Positions 29,664 to 39,177 of a stretch of 64,000 bases of DNA are shown in pieces. A model generated the notes under the pieces. That model was not told where the DNA came from, made no database searches, and saw only the letters and a program-made list of their open reading frames with translations. Each line of letters opens with the position of its first letter. The stretch's first letter is position 1. This DNA comes from a phage: sequence record NC_102531.1; one strand, 5' to 3'. A program made the translations under genes and the position numbers.

Positions 29664-29740
29664 TGGTCTCCACGGAGTGATTCGAACACTCGACCTCCTG
29701 ATCCCAAATCAGGCGCTCTACCAAGCTGAGCTACGCGGAG
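29664..29740 (-). tRNA. tRNA-Pro (anticodon UGG)
   Basis: Manual fold: 7 bp acceptor, D arm, anticodon stem CCUGA/UCAGG with loop UUUGGGA, T loop GTTCGAATC, encoded CCA. Confidence 0.75.
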
Positions 29741-29751
29741 TATTTACTATT

Positions 29752-29826
29752 TGGTGGCCCTGGGTGGAATTGAACCACCGTCTGGCGATTATGAGTCGCT
29801 TGCTTGAACCTTCCAGCTACAGGGCC
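29752..29826 (-). tRNA. tRNA-Met (anticodon CAU; initiator/elongator/Ile2 not distinguished)
   Basis: Manual fold: acceptor GGCCCUG/CAGGGCC, anticodon loop CUCAUAA, T loop GGTTCAATTCC, encoded CCA. Confidence 0.7.
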
Positions 29827-29827
29827 T

Positions 29828-29903
29828 TGGTGCTGATGGCAGGACTTGAACCTACAACCTATTGATTACAAATCAATTGCACTACCGATTGTGCTACATC
29901 AGC
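29828..29903 (-). tRNA. tRNA-Thr (anticodon UGU)
   Basis: Manual fold: acceptor GCUGAUG/CAUCAGC, D arm GCAC/GUGC, anticodon stem AUUGA/UCAAU with loop UUUGUAA, encoded CCA. Confidence 0.75.
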
Positions 29904-29908
29904 AAAAA

Positions 29909-30007
29909 GGTGCTAGGTGATGGAATCGAACCACCTATGTATTCAACGACTACCTCGTCTATTTTCAGGATTAAAAATCCTCGCCCTTGCCAAAGGGCTT
30001 ACCTAGC
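29909..30007 (-). tRNA. aberrant tRNA-like element (anticodon unresolved; possible UUU loop)
   Basis: Perfect 7 bp acceptor (GCUAGGU/ACCUAGC), D arm GCCC/GGGC and T arm GGUGG-UUCGAUU-CCAUC, but ~99 nt long, anticodon region is a palindrome GGAUUUUUAAUCC, ~30 nt extra arm, 3' end ACCU rather than CCA. Confidence 0.35.
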
Positions 30008-30105
30008 TCAGTATGTTGACCATGTTGCTAGTCGGCGATGACGACTGTAACATTTGATAATCCGGTTCTGCTTCCGGCTTTCGCTTAATTACAAGGTCAA
30101 CAATG

Positions 30106-30196
30106 TGGCGGAGAGTAATGGAATCGAACCATCATCGAGTCATACCCAACGGGACGGTTTTCAAGACCGCTTGAGCACCATTGCTCCCTACCCTCC
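30106..30196 (-). tRNA. tRNA-Ser (anticodon UGA)
   Basis: Manual fold: type II tRNA, acceptor GGAGGGU/ACUCUCC, anticodon stem GCGGU/ACCGU with loop CUUGAAA, long variable arm, encoded GCCA. Confidence 0.75.
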
Positions 30197-30310
30197 TTTA
30201 TAAATTATACTGATAATGACACTGATTTTCGAGCAGTTAGTGACTAGTATAAACGACGATAAATATCAATGCCATTATCTGTATTATTTATGCATCTAAA
30301 AATATAAATT

Positions 30311-30397
30311 TGGTGGGGAGTGGTGGAGTCGAACCACCCGAGTCGCAATGACAATAGATTTACAGTCTACACCGCTACCTCTACGGGATAACTCCCC
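30311..30397 (-). tRNA. tRNA-Tyr (anticodon GUA)
   Basis: Manual fold: type II tRNA, acceptor GGGGAGU/ACUCCCC, anticodon stem GUAGA/UCUAU with loop CUGUAAA, T arm GGUGG-UUCGACU-CCACC, encoded CCA. Confidence 0.75.
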
Positions 30398-30401
30398 AAT
30401 T

Positions 30402-30476
30402 TGGCACCCCGTACTGGACTCGAACCAGTGTCAACGGCTTAGAAGGCCGCTGCTTTATCCACTAAGCTAACAGGGC
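30402..30476 (-). tRNA. tRNA-Arg (anticodon UCU)
   Basis: Manual fold: acceptor GCCCUGU/ACGGGGU (two G-U pairs), D arm GCUU/AAGC, anticodon stem GCGGC/GCCGU with loop CUUCUAA, encoded CCA. Confidence 0.7.
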
Positions 30477-33413: not shown

Positions 33414-33968
33414 TTACTCCCTGCTGTCAATATCAAAACTCATTGCAATACGGTATGCCTCTTCTAATGGTAAGAGTCTCCCCCACACATCCCAACCGAC
33501 ATCAAGCTGCCTGCCAAACAACTGTTGTGTGGTTCCGTGAGCATGACCGAACAGTTGGACTGATCCGTGAGGCTTTCTGTTCCACTTTGCAAACTGGTAA
33601 TGGCTCATACAGATCAAATTCTTGTTGTGGCGAAGCTCGTAATAATCTACAACCTCATGACCGAACTCTTTCATAATTCTGACAGTCGTCCTTGTGTCAT
33701 GGTTGCCACGAACAAGAATAATATGTCCGTTCAACATATTTAGAATATCTGGAAGTAAGTTGTTGATATTCTTATCATTAGTGCACGCAATATCTCCCAA
33801 GTGGAACACAGTGTCTGCAGGTGACACAACAGAGTTCCACTCGGCGATGATTCCTGCATTCATACTGTCAAGATTACGATTATACTGAGATCTGTGTTTT
33901 TGACATGAATCAAACTCCATGACCCGCTGGTGGAGAAAGTGTGTGTCGCTTGTTACAAAGTATTTCAT
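33414..33968 (-). CDS. calcineurin-like metallophosphoesterase (candidate RNA 3'-phosphatase, Pnkp-like)
   Basis: Signature motifs SDTH, GDIA, GNHD, GHAH in order; likely start at MKYFVTSDTHF (ORF track 33414..34073 extends into the kinase gene). Confidence 0.6.
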   Translation of the reverse strand: MKYFVTSDTHFLHQRVMEFDSCQKHRSQYNRNLDSMNAGIIAEWNSVVSPADTVFHLGDIACTNDKNINNLLPDILNMLNGHIILVRGNHDTRTTVRIMKEFGHEVVDYYELRHNKNLICMSHYQFAKWNRKPHGSVQLFGHAHGTTQQLFGRQLDVGWDVWGRLLPLEEAYRIAMSFDIDSRE

Positions 33969-33975
33969 ACATTCC

Positions 33976-34386
33976 TCATTTAAGTTTAATGCAGTTTTTA
34001 AGCTGGCGTTCCATACGATCCACAACCCTGTCTGGAACATCATGAATGCTTTTATTACCGTGGCGGTTTTCAACCACGATCACGGTATAACTATACCCAT
34101 TACTGATTGCCATGTCAATATATTCTTGCACATGTTTTTCTTTTGTAAACGTATTACTTACCACGATACGGTCGTATCCCATACGCATCATATCTTCTAC
34201 GTTATCTTTGCACCATTTTGCTGCAAGTGTTACTTTACTTGCATCCCAGTTGTAATTTCCGTCATCGTCGTACCAGAACATGTCGTTCTCAAAATGTGGA
34301 TACAGACCTTCTAAAGATAGCGCATTTGCCAGTGTTGATTTGCCAGACCCTGGTAGACCACGCACGATATATAGCATTTTAGACAT
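33976..34386 (-). CDS. P-loop polynucleotide kinase-like protein (candidate 5'-OH kinase)
   Basis: Walker A GLPGSGKST close to N-terminus, T4 Pnk kinase-domain-like; likely start MSKMLYIV preceded by GGAGG. Confidence 0.5.
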   Translation of the reverse strand: MSKMLYIVRGLPGSGKSTLANALSLEGLYPHFENDMFWYDDDGNYNWDASKVTLAAKWCKDNVEDMMRMGYDRIVVSNTFTKEKHVQEYIDMAISNGYSYTVIVVENRHGNKSIHDVPDRVVDRMERQLKNCIKLK

Positions 34387-34486
34387 AGTAATCCTCCGTT
34401 TTAATTTTAATGATAGTATACCTAACTGTTTTGTTAATTTCAAGTGTTGACACTAGGTTATTTGTGTGGCAGGATAGACTGACAAA

Positions 34487-35422
34487 ATGACAAATGAGGA
34501 ACGTATGATGAAGTATTTTAATGCAGACGACTTGGTTGACAAAGGTCTTGTAACCAGTAGATATTACCCAGATCTTGGGTTAAAGATCTATAAATATGCC
34601 AGAAAAGTATTTTACAACAATTTATGGCATTTGTCCCCTCGTTTACTAGAGTGCCGAGGCATTGTTGTCGGTAATGAAGGAAATGTTGTGGCATGGCCCT
34701 TCACAAAAGTGTTTAACTTGGGAGAAAACTCCACCAACCTGCCTGACAATAAGCTTGTGACGGCGGTAGAGAAAAAGAACGGATTCCTTGGTGTGGTATC
34801 ATCTCATAAAGGTGAACTATTGTTCTCAACAACCGGATCTATTGATTCTCCATATTGTAACCTCGCAAAGGAAACCATCCAGGAGCAATGTGGTAATTTA
34901 GATCTTATCAAGAAGGTTATGGGTAATGAAAACATGACATTCATGTTTGAAATTTGTCACCCTTCAGATCCGCATATTGTTCAGGAAGATCATGGCGCAT
35001 ATTTGATAGGTTGCAGATATAATGATTCTGGAATAATGCTACCAGAGGCAGCTTTAGATGGGATTGCCAAATACCTTGGTGCAAAACGTCCTCACACTGT
35101 GCGTGAAATTCCGTTCAGCTATGCAAAAGAATTAGCTGCAGAAACAAGAGGCGAAGGGTATATGATCCGTAAGCCTTACTACCCTTATGACCTGCAGCTG
35201 AAGATCAAGTCTCCATACTATCTGGCACGGAAGGCCGTAATGAGGTGTAAAGCTTGGAAGATTTGGGATGATGATATCTTTAAACGTGTTGACGAAGAGT
35301 TTTACGGCATGGTAAACTTCATTCGTAGCAATTACACAGAAGATGTGTGGAACTGTCTCCTGGAGCAGGAACGCCGCGAGATACTTGACTGCTATTTCCA
35401 CAACGAGGACTATATGCAATGA
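34487..35422 (+). CDS. RNA ligase, T4 Rnl1 (RnlA)-like
   Basis: Recognisable similarity to T4 Rnl1 N-terminal region (LECRGIVV, KVFNLGEN, adenylation motif EKKNGFLG, STTGSIDS). Confidence 0.6.
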   Translation: MTNEERMMKYFNADDLVDKGLVTSRYYPDLGLKIYKYARKVFYNNLWHLSPRLLECRGIVVGNEGNVVAWPFTKVFNLGENSTNLPDNKLVTAVEKKNGFLGVVSSHKGELLFSTTGSIDSPYCNLAKETIQEQCGNLDLIKKVMGNENMTFMFEICHPSDPHIVQEDHGAYLIGCRYNDSGIMLPEAALDGIAKYLGAKRPHTVREIPFSYAKELAAETRGEGYMIRKPYYPYDLQLKIKSPYYLARKAVMRCKAWKIWDDDIFKRVDEEFYGMVNFIRSNYTEDVWNCLLEQERREILDCYFHNEDYMQ

Positions 35423-35769
35423 AGAAGTTGATTGTGTGGCTGGATGACTTGAGAGATCCGTCAAATTATGGGCTCCCAGACGCTATTTGGCTAAAGAATT
35501 CCTCCGAGTTTATGGATTTTATTGACGATAATAGAAAGCTCTACAGACGCGTTTCTGAGTGGCATATGGACAACGACCTTGGAGAGGTATTCGAAGGGTA
35601 CGATTGCCTATCTATGTTGGAGGAAAAATTTGTATTTGGTAAGCCTCCTGTAGTTGACAACGTGAAGATTTTCGTGCATACTTCTAACCCATCAGCTGCT
35701 CGTAAATTCATGCTTGCAGCTGACTCGTTTAAAAAGTTCGGAATAGAGATTAAACAAAACATCTACTGA
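35419..35769 (+). CDS. hypothetical protein (partner of Sir2 gene)
   Basis: 116 aa ORF overlapping the Rnl stop and ending 9 nt before the Sir2 start. Confidence 0.35.
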   Translation: MKKLIVWLDDLRDPSNYGLPDAIWLKNSSEFMDFIDDNRKLYRRVSEWHMDNDLGEVFEGYDCLSMLEEKFVFGKPPVVDNVKIFVHTSNPSAARKFMLAADSFKKFGIEIKQNIY

Positions 35770-35777
35770 GGACACTT

Positions 35778-36539
35778 ATGCGACGACTGATCATTATCTC
35801 CGGTGCTGGTTTGAGCGCTGAATCTGGTATCCCCACTTTCCGGTCTGGTGGCACTGCAATGTGGGAGAATTTCAGCATCAATGAGGTGTGTAACATCCAC
35901 ACCTTCGCCAAGAACTACTATAAGGTGCATGACTTTTACAATGCACGACGTGTAGCTCTGGGCAGTGTTGATCCTAACCTTGCACATCTCCGGATCGCTG
36001 AGTGGTATTCCCGCTGGTCTGGTCGTGTGATCAACATTACCACCAATGTGGATGATTTGCTGGAGCGTGCTGGTGTAAAACATGAAGATATTTTACATGT
36101 CCACGGGTATTTGCCAGAAATAGTCTATGAGGACGATGAAGGAAGTAACGTTATTAAGGACATTGGATACTCTGAGGTAGATGCAGGAAAGTATACCTGG
36201 GTTAAGCCTAATGTAGTGTTCTTCGGAGAAGTAGCTCCGAAGTATACAGACATGTACGACCTGTTGACTTCCCTTACGAGTAATGATATGGTTATCCTTG
36301 TAGGGTGTTCCAACACAGTTATCAATTTTAACTGGGAGCTATTCCCTGCCTGCAATAAGGGAACCAAACTACTGATCGTTAACAAATACGACTCACAGCA
36401 TCTAGAGGAGAATGGCATTTCACGTAGTGATATTTACCAATATGAGGATCGCGGCATCCCAGTTTGGTTTAACGGGGCGGTTGATGCTTTCTCTGATAAA
36501 ACATTCATTGAGATCGTAGAAAACTTTATGGAACTTTAA
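35778..36539 (+). CDS. Sir2 (sirtuin) family NAD-dependent deacylase/NADase-like protein
   Basis: N-terminal GAGLSAESGIPTFRS (NAD-binding), TNVDDLL and HVHG motifs; no CxxC zinc module seen. Confidence 0.65.
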   Translation: MRRLIIISGAGLSAESGIPTFRSGGTAMWENFSINEVCNIHTFAKNYYKVHDFYNARRVALGSVDPNLAHLRIAEWYSRWSGRVINITTNVDDLLERAGVKHEDILHVHGYLPEIVYEDDEGSNVIKDIGYSEVDAGKYTWVKPNVVFFGEVAPKYTDMYDLLTSLTSNDMVILVGCSNTVINFNWELFPACNKGTKLLIVNKYDSQHLEENGISRSDIYQYEDRGIPVWFNGAVDAFSDKTFIEIVENFMEL

Positions 36540-36552
36540 AAGGAGACCTTTA

Positions 36553-37266
36553 ATGCTGAATACCAAATTGATTGACAACCTGGAAAAACTGTCCCAACCT
36601 GAAAACTACCTTTGGTCTGCTAACTGGGTGGAAAACTGGAACCGTGTGGCAGCTAAAGTGAAAAAATCATACACACCGTTCGAATTACAGCTTAGCTTCA
36701 TTGAGGAAGAGTTCAATGAAGTTTTGGAAGAGCTGGAGAAAGGTGATGGTGGAGATCACCTGCTAAAAGAGGCCTGCGATCTTCACGTTGTCACAAGTTA
36801 TGCCGCTTATCTTGTTAATGACAATCACGAAAAGTGGTCAAGCCTGTTTGATAATCCACGAGGCCTTAAGTTCAAGATCGGTGAGTTCTATGATACCCTG
36901 ATCGCTGCGAAAAACACACCTAAGCAAAGAGCGTCAGCTTACCGCTTAGCGGAGTTGTCAACAGCTTTGCTGTTCCAGCTTCGCGGCGATGTGTGCGGGA
37001 TGATGCGTAAGGTTCTCAAATCGAATGACAGCAAGTTTGCAAAGATTAACCATCTACGGTATTCACACGGTGCCAGTGCAGATATGCCTGCTGAACAACT
37101 CGTAGAGTTGGAGATTAAAGATCTTGAGCGACGCTTTGATGGTCGATATGAAGGTTTTGTTGCTAAGGAAGAATTCTACAACGGTAATAAAGTTATCATA
37201 TTCCTTGACAGTAAAGGTAAGATCATGAAGCCTTCAAGCTTCAAGGATGTAACAGAGTATATTTAA
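36553..37266 (+). CDS. hypothetical protein, possible MazG-like nucleotide pyrophosphohydrolase
   Basis: EEEFNEVLEELEKGDGGDHLLKEACDL resembles the MazG EExxE...D helix pair; weak. Confidence 0.25.
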   Translation: MLNTKLIDNLEKLSQPENYLWSANWVENWNRVAAKVKKSYTPFELQLSFIEEEFNEVLEELEKGDGGDHLLKEACDLHVVTSYAAYLVNDNHEKWSSLFDNPRGLKFKIGEFYDTLIAAKNTPKQRASAYRLAELSTALLFQLRGDVCGMMRKVLKSNDSKFAKINHLRYSHGASADMPAEQLVELEIKDLERRFDGRYEGFVAKEEFYNGNKVIIFLDSKGKIMKPSSFKDVTEYI

Positions 37267-37299
37267 CAACATAGCCGGGATCACCCGGCTTTACTTGTT

Positions 37300-37638
37300 G
37301 TGGAAAGTATGCAAGTGAGGCAGATAGTTATGTACAAGCACTCCAGAGATCTTGAAAACGATGCTGTGTTTGGGGATCAGATGAAAGAGTTGGTTAAACT
37401 CATAGGCAGAATAGAGGATAAGTTTGACACTAAGATCTACATCGACAGCAAAGTATTCAACCACAAAATATGGACAAATCTGTGTGTTGGACTACATGGA
37501 GATAAAGATGTGGTAAATTTAGTTGTAATTAAGTTCATAGTGTGGCAGAATAAAACTATAAATTATTACGATCCACACCTGCTGGTTTACCCGATAAAAG
37601 ACCTATTAGATAAGGAGGACTGCAATGCCGTTATTTAA
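37300..37638 (+). CDS. hypothetical protein
   Basis: 112 aa ORF. Confidence 0.3.
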   Translation: MESMQVRQIVMYKHSRDLENDAVFGDQMKELVKLIGRIEDKFDTKIYIDSKVFNHKIWTNLCVGLHGDKDVVNLVVIKFIVWQNKTINYYDPHLLVYPIKDLLDKEDCNAVI

Positions 37639-37894
37639 TCTTGCTAAACCTGTAGAAGCACACCAGTTTGACGGAAGCTCTTCATCAGTATCTGATCTGC
37701 AACGGTGGATTGATACAGGTGTGTTTACATCGTCACCTGTTCGGACCAGAGATCTTCGTCGCATGTGTGAGCTTGTAGAGCCGTTTGGTAACCTAGTCTT
37801 GTACCATGGAGATTGGTTAGTTGACTTTATGGGAGACTGGTTGGTAATGAGTAAAGAAGAGATGTTTAAAATTTTTAAGGAAGAGGCCGAGTAA
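37625..37894 (+). CDS. hypothetical protein
   Basis: 89 aa ORF, overlapping neighbours. Confidence 0.3.
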   Translation: MPLFNLAKPVEAHQFDGSSSSVSDLQRWIDTGVFTSSPVRTRDLRRMCELVEPFGNLVLYHGDWLVDFMGDWLVMSKEEMFKIFKEEAE

Positions 37895-39177
37895 TGCATC
37901 AAATCAAAACAACACTGTACGCACTGAATAAAGATGGCAGCTACCAACAGTGGAAAGTATTCACGGATGGTGATAAGGTTATCGTAGAGTTTGGCAAGCT
38001 TGATGGTAAACTGCAATACAAAGAGACGATCTGCACACCTAAGAACGTGGGTCGCGCCAATGAAACTACAGCTGAGCAACAGGCCGAGCTGGAAGCGATC
38101 AGTAAGTGGGAAAAACAGGTCCGACTTGGGTACGTGGAGAGTATGGAAGATTGTGAGCAAGGTGTTGATCTTCTACCCATGTTGGTGCATGACTACCTGA
38201 AGCGTGGCAAGGCACTTAAATTACCTTGCTGGATCTTGCGTAAGTTAGATGGCCTTCGTCTACTTGTTGTTTTCCAGAATGGTGAGCCTAAATTTATTTC
38301 CCGTGGTAATAAGTCCTACCCTATTCAAGGGAAGCTTCTGGAGCAACTTCGCTCTTTCCACCTAACCACCGGGATTAAACAGCTCGACGGAGAGCTCTAT
38401 ATTCATGGTCTGCCTCTGCAGAAAATAGTATCTCTTGCTAAACGGTGGCGCACACAGGAAGAAATTCAGGCCGAGATCGATAAAGACTACGAGGCAGATA
38501 AAAAACGCCGTCAGGCTGCGATTAAAGCAGGTTTAGCAACATACAAAAACTTCAACAAGATGGACATTCCTGTTGATGTTGAGCCTGTTCGTGATGATTT
38601 GCGTTACGGAGGGTACTGCAGCTACGACTTAGAGTATCATATTTTCGATATTCCTAGCGATAAGGTGTGGTGGGATCCTGAAACAGAGTCTGGACGCTGT
38701 AAGGATCTTATGGAGGCAAATGGTGCTATTGCTTCTTTGATGCTTGATCATATTAAGGTTGTTGATGCAGAGCTTGCATACACAGTTGATCGGTGCGAAG
38801 AGTCTGTTGGTATATTTATGTCTGAGGGATATGAAGGTACCATTATGCGTAACTTCTGTGGTAAATATGAGTATGGTCAGCGAACATCTGAAGCATTGAA
38901 ATGGAAAAAGTTCAACGACGCAGAGGTGAAAGTTATTGACGTTGAGAAAGATAAGAATGATGAAGGTGTTCTTATCTGTGTTGACAAGGAAGGTGTTGTT
39001 GTTAAAATGAAGATGAAAGGCACGCACGAGGAGCGTAGCTATGACAGGATGCAGGAAATGATCGGCAAGTTTATCACCTTCAAATACCAAGCAAGGACAG
39101 AAGACAACAACTACCAATTCCCTGTCGGTATCTGCGTTCGAAATGTTAACCCAGACACTTGGGAGGTGCTGGAATGA
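37894..39177 (+). CDS. DNA ligase (KxDG nucleotidyltransferase; cofactor class unresolved)
   Basis: 427 aa; motif I LRKLDGLRLLVVF (KxDGxR) and downstream nucleotidyltransferase-like organisation. Confidence 0.55.
   Translation: MHQIKTTLYALNKDGSYQQWKVFTDGDKVIVEFGKLDGKLQYKETICTPKNVGRANETTAEQQAELEAISKWEKQVRLGYVESMEDCEQGVDLLPMLVHDYLKRGKALKLPCWILRKLDGLRLLVVFQNGEPKFISRGNKSYPIQGKLLEQLRSFHLTTGIKQLDGELYIHGLPLQKIVSLAKRWRTQEEIQAEIDKDYEADKKRRQAAIKAGLATYKNFNKMDIPVDVEPVRDDLRYGGYCSYDLEYHIFDIPSDKVWWDPETESGRCKDLMEANGAIASLMLDHIKVVDAELAYTVDRCEESVGIFMSEGYEGTIMRNFCGKYEYGQRTSEALKWKKFNDAEVKVIDVEKDKNDEGVLICVDKEGVVVKMKMKGTHEERSYDRMQEMIGKFITFKYQARTEDNNYQFPVGICVRNVNPDTWEVLE

Follow-up and report, generated by a model that had tools for sequence, protein, structure and literature searches.

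The window analysed here is the whole of a 64,000-nucleotide stretch of phage DNA, sequence record NC_102531.1, and its element of interest is a pair of adjacent genes whose products, of 116 and 253 amino acids, we call cREC and Sir2. The source phage is an rV5-like Vequintavirus: around the pair, sequence identity reaches 96-97% with naam, RudolfGeigy, rV5_ev147 and other Escherichia phages. In the annotation of these relatives, the 253-residue protein is Sir2-like or a nicotinamide adenine dinucleotide (NAD)-dependent deacetylase, the 116-residue protein is hypothetical, and the product of the gene that precedes them is an RNA ligase. The two open reading frames (ORFs) are genuine genes, since homologs of the shorter occur in 347, and of the longer in 980, of the 50,697 phage records surveyed. 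With their neighbours (Table 1), they make up a locus already described computationally in 2022, with this very group of phages as a prototype: the type 2, sirtuin-centred phage RNA-repair neighbourhood of Iyer, Burroughs, Anantharaman & Aravind (Viruses 14:1977, section 3.7.3, PMC9503650).

Four genes, coding for the RNA ligase, cREC, Sir2 and a MazG-like protein, appear to form a single transcription unit, because they are tightly spaced and a hairpin stands downstream of the last of them; this hairpin is likely the terminator that closes the unit. The ATG of cREC overlaps the stop codon of the RNA ligase in the tetranucleotide ATGA (35419-35422), with a GAGGA 9 nucleotides upstream. Between the cREC stop and the Sir2 start there are 8 nucleotides, and a GAGGA overlaps the cREC stop codon; between Sir2 and the MazG-like gene there are 13, with an AGGAG 7 nucleotides upstream of the latter. 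Each gene of the unit has its own Shine-Dalgarno sequence. A preliminary description of this DNA, made from the letters alone, had presented the genes of the 116- and 253-residue proteins as an operon of two: the tight linkage, including the overlap with the stop of the RNA ligase, is real, but the unit has four genes and the gap is of 8 nucleotides, not 9. A dedicated two-gene operon is rejected on these grounds, and also on those of the Mydo-like phages, in which a polynucleotide kinase gene separates cREC from Sir2.

Table 1. Genes and other features of the cluster, in window coordinates (aa, amino acids).
Feature	Coordinates	Strand	Basis and remarks
Calcineurin-like metallophosphoesterase, 184 aa from ATG	33414..33968	-	Pfam Metallophos_2 4.1e-07, Metallophos 7e-07; PDB 1xm7 1.9e-10; 'putative phosphoesterase' in RudolfGeigy; mechanical ORF runs on to 34073
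P-loop polynucleotide-kinase-like protein, 136 aa from ATG	33976..34386	-	Pfam AAA_33 1.6e-09, Zeta_toxin 4.7e-06; 'polynucleotide kinase' in RudolfGeigy; mechanical ORF extends to 34443
Divergent intergenic region	34387..34504	none	TTGACA (34447-34452) oriented towards the RNA ligase; putative
T4 Rnl1-family RNA ligase, 305 aa from ATG behind GAGGA	34505..35422	+	Pfam RNA_lig_T4_1 4.9e-15; phrog_562 1e-65; TIGR02308 1.4e-10 (below cutoff); motif-I-like EKKNG; mechanical ORF starts at 34487
cREC protein, 116 aa	35419..35769	+	Pfam PF20274 cREC_REC
Zinc-less class III (CobB/SIRT5-like) sirtuin, 253 aa	35778..36539	+	Pfam SIR2
MazG-superfamily-like pyrophosphohydrolase candidate, 237 aa	36553..37266	+	phrog_671
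GC-rich hairpin of 7 bp (6 G-C) with a T-rich tail behind it	37273..37290	+	Consensus terminator scan; matches both strands

By Pfam, the 253-residue product belongs to the canonical sirtuins (SIR2), but it is without the cysteines of the zinc ribbon. It matches PF02146 with E = 5.9e-27 and 95.2 bits (cutoff 24), over positions 1-178 of a profile of 180, and phrog_2162 with 3e-109; the databases label it a deacetylase. The preliminary description had placed it in the Sir2 family of a phage on the strength of the motifs GAGLSAESGIPTFRS and LHVHG, and the Pfam match and the identity with rV5-like phages confirm this. Aligning 28 phage homologs, 51-61% identical, leaves as invariant residues G9-A10-G11, S16, F21-R22, Y54, R57, R58, N90, D92, H109-G110 and F149-G150-E151. 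The residues for NAD binding and catalysis (GAGxS, TFR, the Asn and Asp of QN.D type, His-Gly and FGE) align to those of SIRT5 and Escherichia coli CobB, the nearest solved relatives by sequence. The AlphaFold2 model, with a pLDDT of 89.3, has as its best PDB folds, according to Foldseek, CobB, Sir2Af1 and SIRT5 (E about 1e-18, TM-scores of 0.76-0.86), and a profile built on the 28 homologs ranks E. coli CobB (1s5p) first, at 8.3e-29.

The absence of a zinc ribbon, also remarked in the preliminary description, is borne out at the scale of the clade. There is no cysteine between the HG motif (109-110) and the segment KPNVVFFGE (143-151), either in Sir2 or in the 28 aligned clade members. Seven further homologs, four of them from jumbo phages, at 32-44% identity, contain no CxxC zinc-ribbon motif; that of phage Muenster has one lone cysteine in this stretch. 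The module itself is kept, not deleted: the insert has the length of the zinc module of CobB, with the positions of the CobB cysteines substituted in the 28-homolog profile, and it is modelled as three beta-strands.

The missing cysteines had led to a comparison with the NADases of bacterial defence, ThsA, DSR and Sir2-HerA, and they are the one argument for viewing Sir2 as a zinc-less effector that depletes the NAD+ of the host, for superinfection exclusion or host shut-off, under the regulation of its 116-residue partner. Sir2 shares with ThsA, DSR1/2, Sir2-HerA and SPARSA a superfamily and the use of NAD+; a closer resemblance is not supported. Pfam gives PF02146 only for Sir2 and does not report SIR2_2, the family of the defence proteins; PADLOC yields a single chance-level match (0.0075, 13.6 bits) with no passing stretch; and no defence-type Sir2 is found among the top 50 Foldseek matches. 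The comparison of deacetylase-type with NADase-type proteins, by profiles and by structures, thus puts Sir2 with CobB and SIRT5. It is a single-domain protein of 253 amino acids, without any sensor or regulatory domain, and no SLOG, HerA, pAgo, TIR or long DSR repeats are fused to it or adjacent to it: its neighbours are the genes of the RNA ligase, cREC, the MazG-like protein, the kinase and the phosphoesterase. The supposed regulator has the invariant Asp, His, Thr and Lys of an enzyme, and is dispensable in most phages that carry Sir2. Finally, depleting NAD+ would harm a lytic phage, and relatives in jumbo phages place the gene beside genes of NAD+ synthesis. A defence-type NADase is rejected on the Pfam, PADLOC, NCBIfam and fold evidence, and we consider the effector role as a whole highly improbable. 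The context points to NAD-dependent repair of RNA ends, or to the clean-up of ADP-ribose products, rather than to NAD depletion; some role of Sir2 in NAD-linked conflict is possible.

If Sir2 resembles CobB and SIRT5, it is natural to ask whether it acts as they do, as a lysine deacylase (deacetylase or desuccinylase) by which proteins of the host or of the phage would be remodelled at an early stage of infection, the cREC and MazG-like proteins being unrelated or serving to dispose of O-acyl-ADP-ribose. CobB and SIRT5 are the closest relatives by sequence, by profile and by fold, and the database annotations agree. GAGxS, TFR, N90, D92, H109 and FGE are invariant, the insert in the small domain has the same length, and Y54 and R57 align with Y102 and R105 of SIRT5, the Tyr-x-x-Arg pair of class III that recognises acidic acyl groups. 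However, the differences are of several kinds. Identity with CobB and SIRT5 is 24-28%, and the scores for the best NCBIfam models, all for CobB-type deacylases, fall well short of the cutoffs: NF001753 gives 122 bits where 243 are required, and prot_deacyl_CobB 103 where 320 are. The zinc cysteines are lost clade-wide; R57 is replaced by Leu in the jumbo-phage homologs, where R58 is invariant; and W29, C38 and G130-Y131 are invariants specific to the clade. The loop GTSGHVYP of CobB (GTSxxVYP) has become GCSNxVIN in the phage clade. In CobB this loop is part of the surface that binds NAD and the peptide, and its change would be consistent with a different substrate. By genomic context Sir2 is tied to RNA end-healing and not, as CobB is, to acetyl-CoA metabolism; no Macro or esterase partner is present, and the Macro domain has no match among the eight window proteins scanned with Pfam. 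A deacylase also leaves unexplained why, in four phage lineages, the gene is repeatedly linked to cREC plus a pyrophosphatase and to genes of RNA end-healing. We therefore regard this role as unlikely.

The partner of Sir2, said in the preliminary description to be of unknown fold, matches PF20274 cREC_REC, the "cyclic-phosphate processing receiver domain", with E = 1.9e-14 and 54.5 bits (cutoff 27), as well as phrog_1479 with 6e-35; the Pfam domain is carried by 54 of the 56 homologs found. Its AlphaFold2 model (pLDDT 93) consists of five beta/alpha units. The best folds in the PDB are receiver domains of two-component systems, and these matches are weak (E = 2.7e-3, TM-scores of 0.55-0.60 with Foldseek); neither sequence nor fold comparison finds a solved close relative in the PDB. 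No two-component histidine kinase turns up in the cREC neighbourhood in the ORF list or the Pfam scan. The residues R12, D51, D53, H87, T88, S89, N90 and K96 are invariant, and D9 and D10 nearly so, a pattern that looks like the active site of an enzyme. The protein is predicted to be a divergent, receiver-like Rossmannoid domain acting as a metal-independent phosphoesterase on cyclic phosphates. The domain was defined and named by Iyer and colleagues in a 2021 paper on jumbo phages (PMC7824862), and it is stated there, and in PMC9503650, to be experimentally uncharacterised.

The 237-residue product of the last gene of the unit matches the nucleotide pyrophosphohydrolase family phrog_671 with 4.3e-22. 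Its link to PRA-PH is marginal: 0.087 with Pfam at a permissive threshold, and again 0.087 for the family profile against PDB 1yvw. The N-terminal region contains an EExxE...D motif, with E52, E53, E56 and D76 invariant, and Iyer et al. (PMC9503650) assign this type of gene to the MazG superfamily. The resemblance to PRA-PH and MazG is weak and confined to that N-terminal region. The C-terminal half is strongly conserved, with neither a Pfam family nor a PDB sequence match, and its invariants are V154, L155, S157, N158, S160, K161, E187, R194, G197, Y199, G222-K223-I224 and K226-P227.

The comparison with other phages covered 58 IMG/VR loci with a Sir2 homolog and 45 with a cREC homolog. Given the numbers of records that carry each gene, cREC is a frequent companion of Sir2, not an obligate one. 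In Mydo-like phages of about 145 kb, the phosphoesterase, RNA ligase, cREC, polynucleotide kinase, Sir2, DNA ligase and MazG-like genes are contiguous and co-directional, at 43-64% identity. The phi92-like loci keep most of the other genes of the cluster, with no cREC match within 7 kb. There are also distant cREC proteins with no Sir2 within 7 kb. That cREC could be a dedicated partner of Sir2 is ruled out: the two are about 32 kb apart in a group of phages of about 150 kb, and for most T5-like phages no cREC is detected close to Sir2, within 7 kb in the loci compared. Sir2 of the T5-like phages also lacks the other neighbours that it has in the cluster.

The locus of phage T5 (NC_005859; locus L060, 7589-8928) provides an independent tie of Sir2 to RNA repair. 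There, a single unit annotated from promoter to terminator contains both T5.102, the homolog of Sir2, and T5.105, a HAD_SAK_2 phosphatase of the 'Swiss-army-knife RNA repair' type (E = 4e-20). RefSeq mislabels T5.105 as 'Sir2 (NAD-dependent deacetylase)', the actual Sir2 being T5.102. The same unit holds T5.106 and T5.107, tandem DUF7415 paralogs that recur in T5-like loci. Neither HAD_SAK_2 nor DUF7415 has a tblastn match in our window.

Jumbo phages of three genera reveal another arrangement: Sir2, then a Nudix gene, then cREC. These are separate genes, overlapping or abutting, in Escherichia phage JP4 (locus L106, 4465-7894) and Klebsiella phage Muenster (L109, 740-8430). In the Eneladusvirus BF-type Erwinia phage pEa_SNUABM_49 (L108, 812-8500) Sir2 is followed by a Nudix-cREC fusion; all genes of this block are annotated 'hypothetical protein' in the record. 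The recurrent trio thus consists of Sir2, cREC and a pyrophosphatase, and since the jumbo phages carry Nudix where the rV5-like phage has the MazG-like gene, these two seem to stand in for each other, without homology, within a single pathway. In Muenster and pEa_SNUABM_49, NadM/NadV-like genes of NAD+ salvage flank the trio, which lies directly downstream of them. A PhoH-like ATPase is encoded in the JP4 and Muenster loci; a 2H, Acb1-like phosphodiesterase and a PIN-PhoH gene are near the trio of pEa_SNUABM_49.

The salvage genes suggest that Sir2, cREC and the pyrophosphatase might have nothing to do with RNA, and form a module of NAD+ and ADP-ribose metabolism, used in counter-defence or in the detoxification of NAD-derived signals or toxic ADP-ribose phosphates, which it would turn into products that are harmless or can be recycled. 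The position of the jumbo trio, directly downstream of NadM/NadV and beside the Acb1-like phosphodiesterase, agrees with this, and so does a Sir2 locus that adjoins a NAMPT gene. Moreover, in two IMG/VR metagenomic phages (L088, 6950-9771, and L094, 1191-3932), cREC, recognised with 6e-24 and 2e-23, is directly upstream of a PRPS-like and NAMPT-like pair that resembles the NARP1 operon of NAD+ reconstitution (Adps and Namat). There is a precedent for accessory enzymes in such operons: those of NARP1 can carry an enzyme that processes ADP-ribose (ADPR), the Macro-domain ADPR-1''P phosphatase Adpp, in a preprint that does not mention cREC (bioRxiv 10.64898/2026.01.28.702374). However, L088 and L094 are related, with 81% nucleotide identity over part of their length, and count as one observation. 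A canonical sirtuin consumes NAD+ and does not restore it, and no homolog of the NARP1-like pair, any more than of HAD_SAK_2, is detected in the window. The embedding of the genes among an RNA ligase, a kinase and a phosphoesterase, in rV5-like and Mydo-like phages, and the HAD_SAK_2 link in T5, are also left unexplained. A metabolite module independent of RNA thus seems to us improbable.

The proposal of Iyer et al. (PMC9503650) is that a distinct sirtuin clade acts in the manner of KptA/Tpt1, removing the RNA 2'-phosphates that are left once 2',3'-cyclic phosphate ends are opened. Their type 2 neighbourhood, with Escherichia phage V5 (rV5) and Proteus phage Mydo as prototypes, comprises a sirtuin, a T4-like tRNA ligase, cREC, a nucleotide kinase, a MazG pyrophosphatase and, in some cases, a calcineurin-like phosphoesterase, without a Macro partner; variants in jumbo and T5-like (SP15) phages are described in the same paper. 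In our window all the components lie within 33414-37266, the MazG part on the basis of phrog_671 and the marginal PRA-PH matches. This is the same type of locus, with every component present and nothing substantive different.

Following this model, the reading that we favour, and hold to be nearly as likely as not, is that Sir2 and cREC belong to an NAD+-dependent cluster for healing and sealing RNA ends. RNA cut by metal-independent RNases of the host, such as anticodon nucleases, would end in a 2',3'-cyclic phosphate on one side and a 5'-OH on the other. The 5' end would be phosphorylated by the kinase, the cyclic phosphate would be opened or removed by cREC, by the metallophosphoesterase or by both, and the Rnl1-type ligase would seal the break. 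The sirtuin would then carry off the residual 2'-phosphate of the RNA with the help of NAD+, leaving a product that cREC might linearise and the MazG-like pyrophosphatase split. What the analysis shows is the domain identities, the layout of the operon, the conservation of the cluster and the recurrence of the trio; for the sirtuin, for cREC and for the MazG-like protein, all the catalytic steps given here are ones that we infer.

We favour this model because it alone explains both linkages of the genes. The first is with RNA end-healing and sealing: Rnl, kinase, phosphoesterase, HAD_SAK_2, PIN-PhoH and 2H genes. The second is with cREC and a MazG-like or Nudix enzyme, which together are suited to dismantling a phosphorylated ADP-ribose product, sometimes with NAD+ salvage genes nearby. 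Sirtuin deacylation and the Tpt1 reaction both begin with an attack of a substrate oxygen on C1'' of NAD+, followed by an attack of the ribose 2''-OH, and the proposal of a 2'-phosphate substrate is therefore chemically reasonable. To our knowledge, the transfer of ADP-ribose onto a phosphate has never been demonstrated for any sirtuin. A more specific form of the proposal takes as a conserved core of three enzymes the zinc-less sirtuin, cREC and, as NDP-X pyrophosphatase, a MazG-like or Nudix protein: the sirtuin would ADP-ribosylate a phosphate, which could be a 2'-phosphate of RNA or a terminal phosphate, and cREC would be a new cyclic phosphodiesterase of receiver fold, one that would also serve as an accessory in operons of NAD+ reconstitution, as in the order cREC-Adps-Namat that L088 and L094 show. 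This form is possible, and we would lean somewhat against it.

Several observations weigh against an NAD+-dependent repair of RNA ends. To judge by its sequence, Sir2 retains everything that a CobB-type lysine deacylase needs, and the Rnl1 ligase, the kinase and the phosphoesterase could suffice for a repair in the style of T4, without a 2'-phosphate intermediate. It is from genomic context that cREC has been given its cyclic-phosphate function, so that the argument is partly circular, and the MazG assignment is weak, both PRA-PH matches being at 0.087. The contexts elsewhere are not uniform: in L088 and L094 cREC is instead followed by a NARP1-like pair; the phages of about 150 kb cluster cREC, phosphoesterase, Rnl, polynucleotide kinase, ligase and MazG-like genes at a distance of some 32 kb from Sir2; and T5-like loci have neither RNA ligase nor kinase, any more than cREC, within 7 kb of Sir2. 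Neither PTS_2-RNA (KptA) nor RNA ligase is among the 25 commonest families of the 150 neighbouring ORFs of 20 distant cREC loci, which speaks neither for nor against a replacement of Sir2 by KptA beside these genes. Lastly, no experimental work on phage sirtuins or on cREC came up in a full-text search of the searchable literature.

Two known systems help to place the cluster. In fungal tRNA splicing, the 2'-phosphotransferase KptA/Tpt1 is followed by the clean-up enzymes Cpd1, of the 2H type, and Poa1, a Macro protein. The logic proposed here is the same, in that NAD+ would accept the 2'-phosphate of the RNA and the resulting ADP-ribose cyclic phosphate would be opened and degraded, and these genes, too, are linked with those of an RNA ligase and of a kinase. 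It is an analogy only: the folds are unrelated, a sirtuin Rossmann fold facing the ART-like fold of Tpt1 and cREC facing 2H, and Sir2, a sirtuin by both Pfam and Foldseek, has neither the Tpt1 fold nor membership of the corresponding family PF01885. The second system is that of T4, in which Pnkp and Rnl1 repair tRNA and so counter the anticodon nuclease PrrC. Both are lytic coliphages with an Rnl1-family ligase, a 5'-kinase and a phosphoesterase, and a tRNA gene cluster (29664-30476) lies about 3.5 kb from the repair genes of our phage. Here, however, kinase and phosphatase are separate proteins, the phosphatase is calcineurin-like and not of the HAD type, and three more genes, those of cREC, Sir2 and the MazG-like protein, have no counterpart in T4.

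As the finding of a genome scan, all this adds little to the 2022 description: the additions are a clade-wide census of the zinc cysteines, structure models, the boundaries of the operon, and the counts that make cREC a non-obligate companion. The predicted module is nonetheless an attractive hypothesis, at the meeting point of tRNA-targeting defences and the arms race over NAD+. The Sir2 family in question is widespread, from the model phage T5 to rV5-like and Klebsiella phages that are candidates for therapy, and it is almost always annotated "NAD-dependent deacetylase". If the prediction is true, sirtuins gain a nucleic-acid substrate, as an analogue of the Tpt1 2'-phosphotransferase, and a receiver-fold protein becomes a new class of cyclic phosphodiesterase.

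We now turn to the remaining genes of the region. On the minus strand, the kinase gene sits 7 nucleotides upstream of the phosphoesterase gene, and both are divergent from the RNA ligase. The kinase adjoins Rnl and cREC in related phages, and the metallophosphoesterase accompanies the cluster in Mydo-like and phi92-like phages and in those of about 150 kb; the latter enzyme is a candidate for the healing of RNA ends with a 2'- or 3'-phosphate or a cyclic phosphate. The divergent region holds the hexamer of Table 1, read from the sequence; a consensus scan adds two candidate promoter-like hexamer pairs facing the kinase, at 34443-34415 and 34437-34410 of the minus strand. Ligase, kinase and MazG-like protein all lack a match in the PDB by sequence search.

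Shortly downstream of the cluster, an ATP-dependent DNA ligase is encoded at 37894-39177, and the interval 37300-37894 contains two small conserved ORFs, of 112 and 89 amino acids, with no Pfam match. In both rV5-like and Mydo-like phages these two ORFs and the DNA ligase accompany the RNA-repair genes, and the conserved block may therefore be a more general island for the healing and sealing of nucleic-acid ends.

A few public database records look doubtful. Eighteen records of 'Campylobacter phage', with C. jejuni as host, are 92-96% identical to the segment 34400-37300 of the window; a 2,682-bp record of 'Listeria phage LM 4-11-1' holds a T5-like Sir2; and a homolog in a Klebsiella phage bears the name 'tail assembly protein'. 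Such entries appear to be mislabelled hosts, contamination or errors of annotation.

Finally, the tRNA cluster includes, about 4 kb from the repair genes, a tRNA-like gene of 97-99 nucleotides (29909-30007, minus strand). ARAGORN assigns no tRNA to it, calling a four-base anticodon 'atcc', and Rfam gives it a weak tRNA score of 35.5 bits. Its anticodon loop, TTTTTAA, fits a tRNA-Lys(UUU) with an unusually long extra arm, and tRNA-Lys is its annotation in RudolfGeigy. Since tRNA-Lys is a classic target of anticodon nucleases, this gene could supply a nuclease-resistant replacement.

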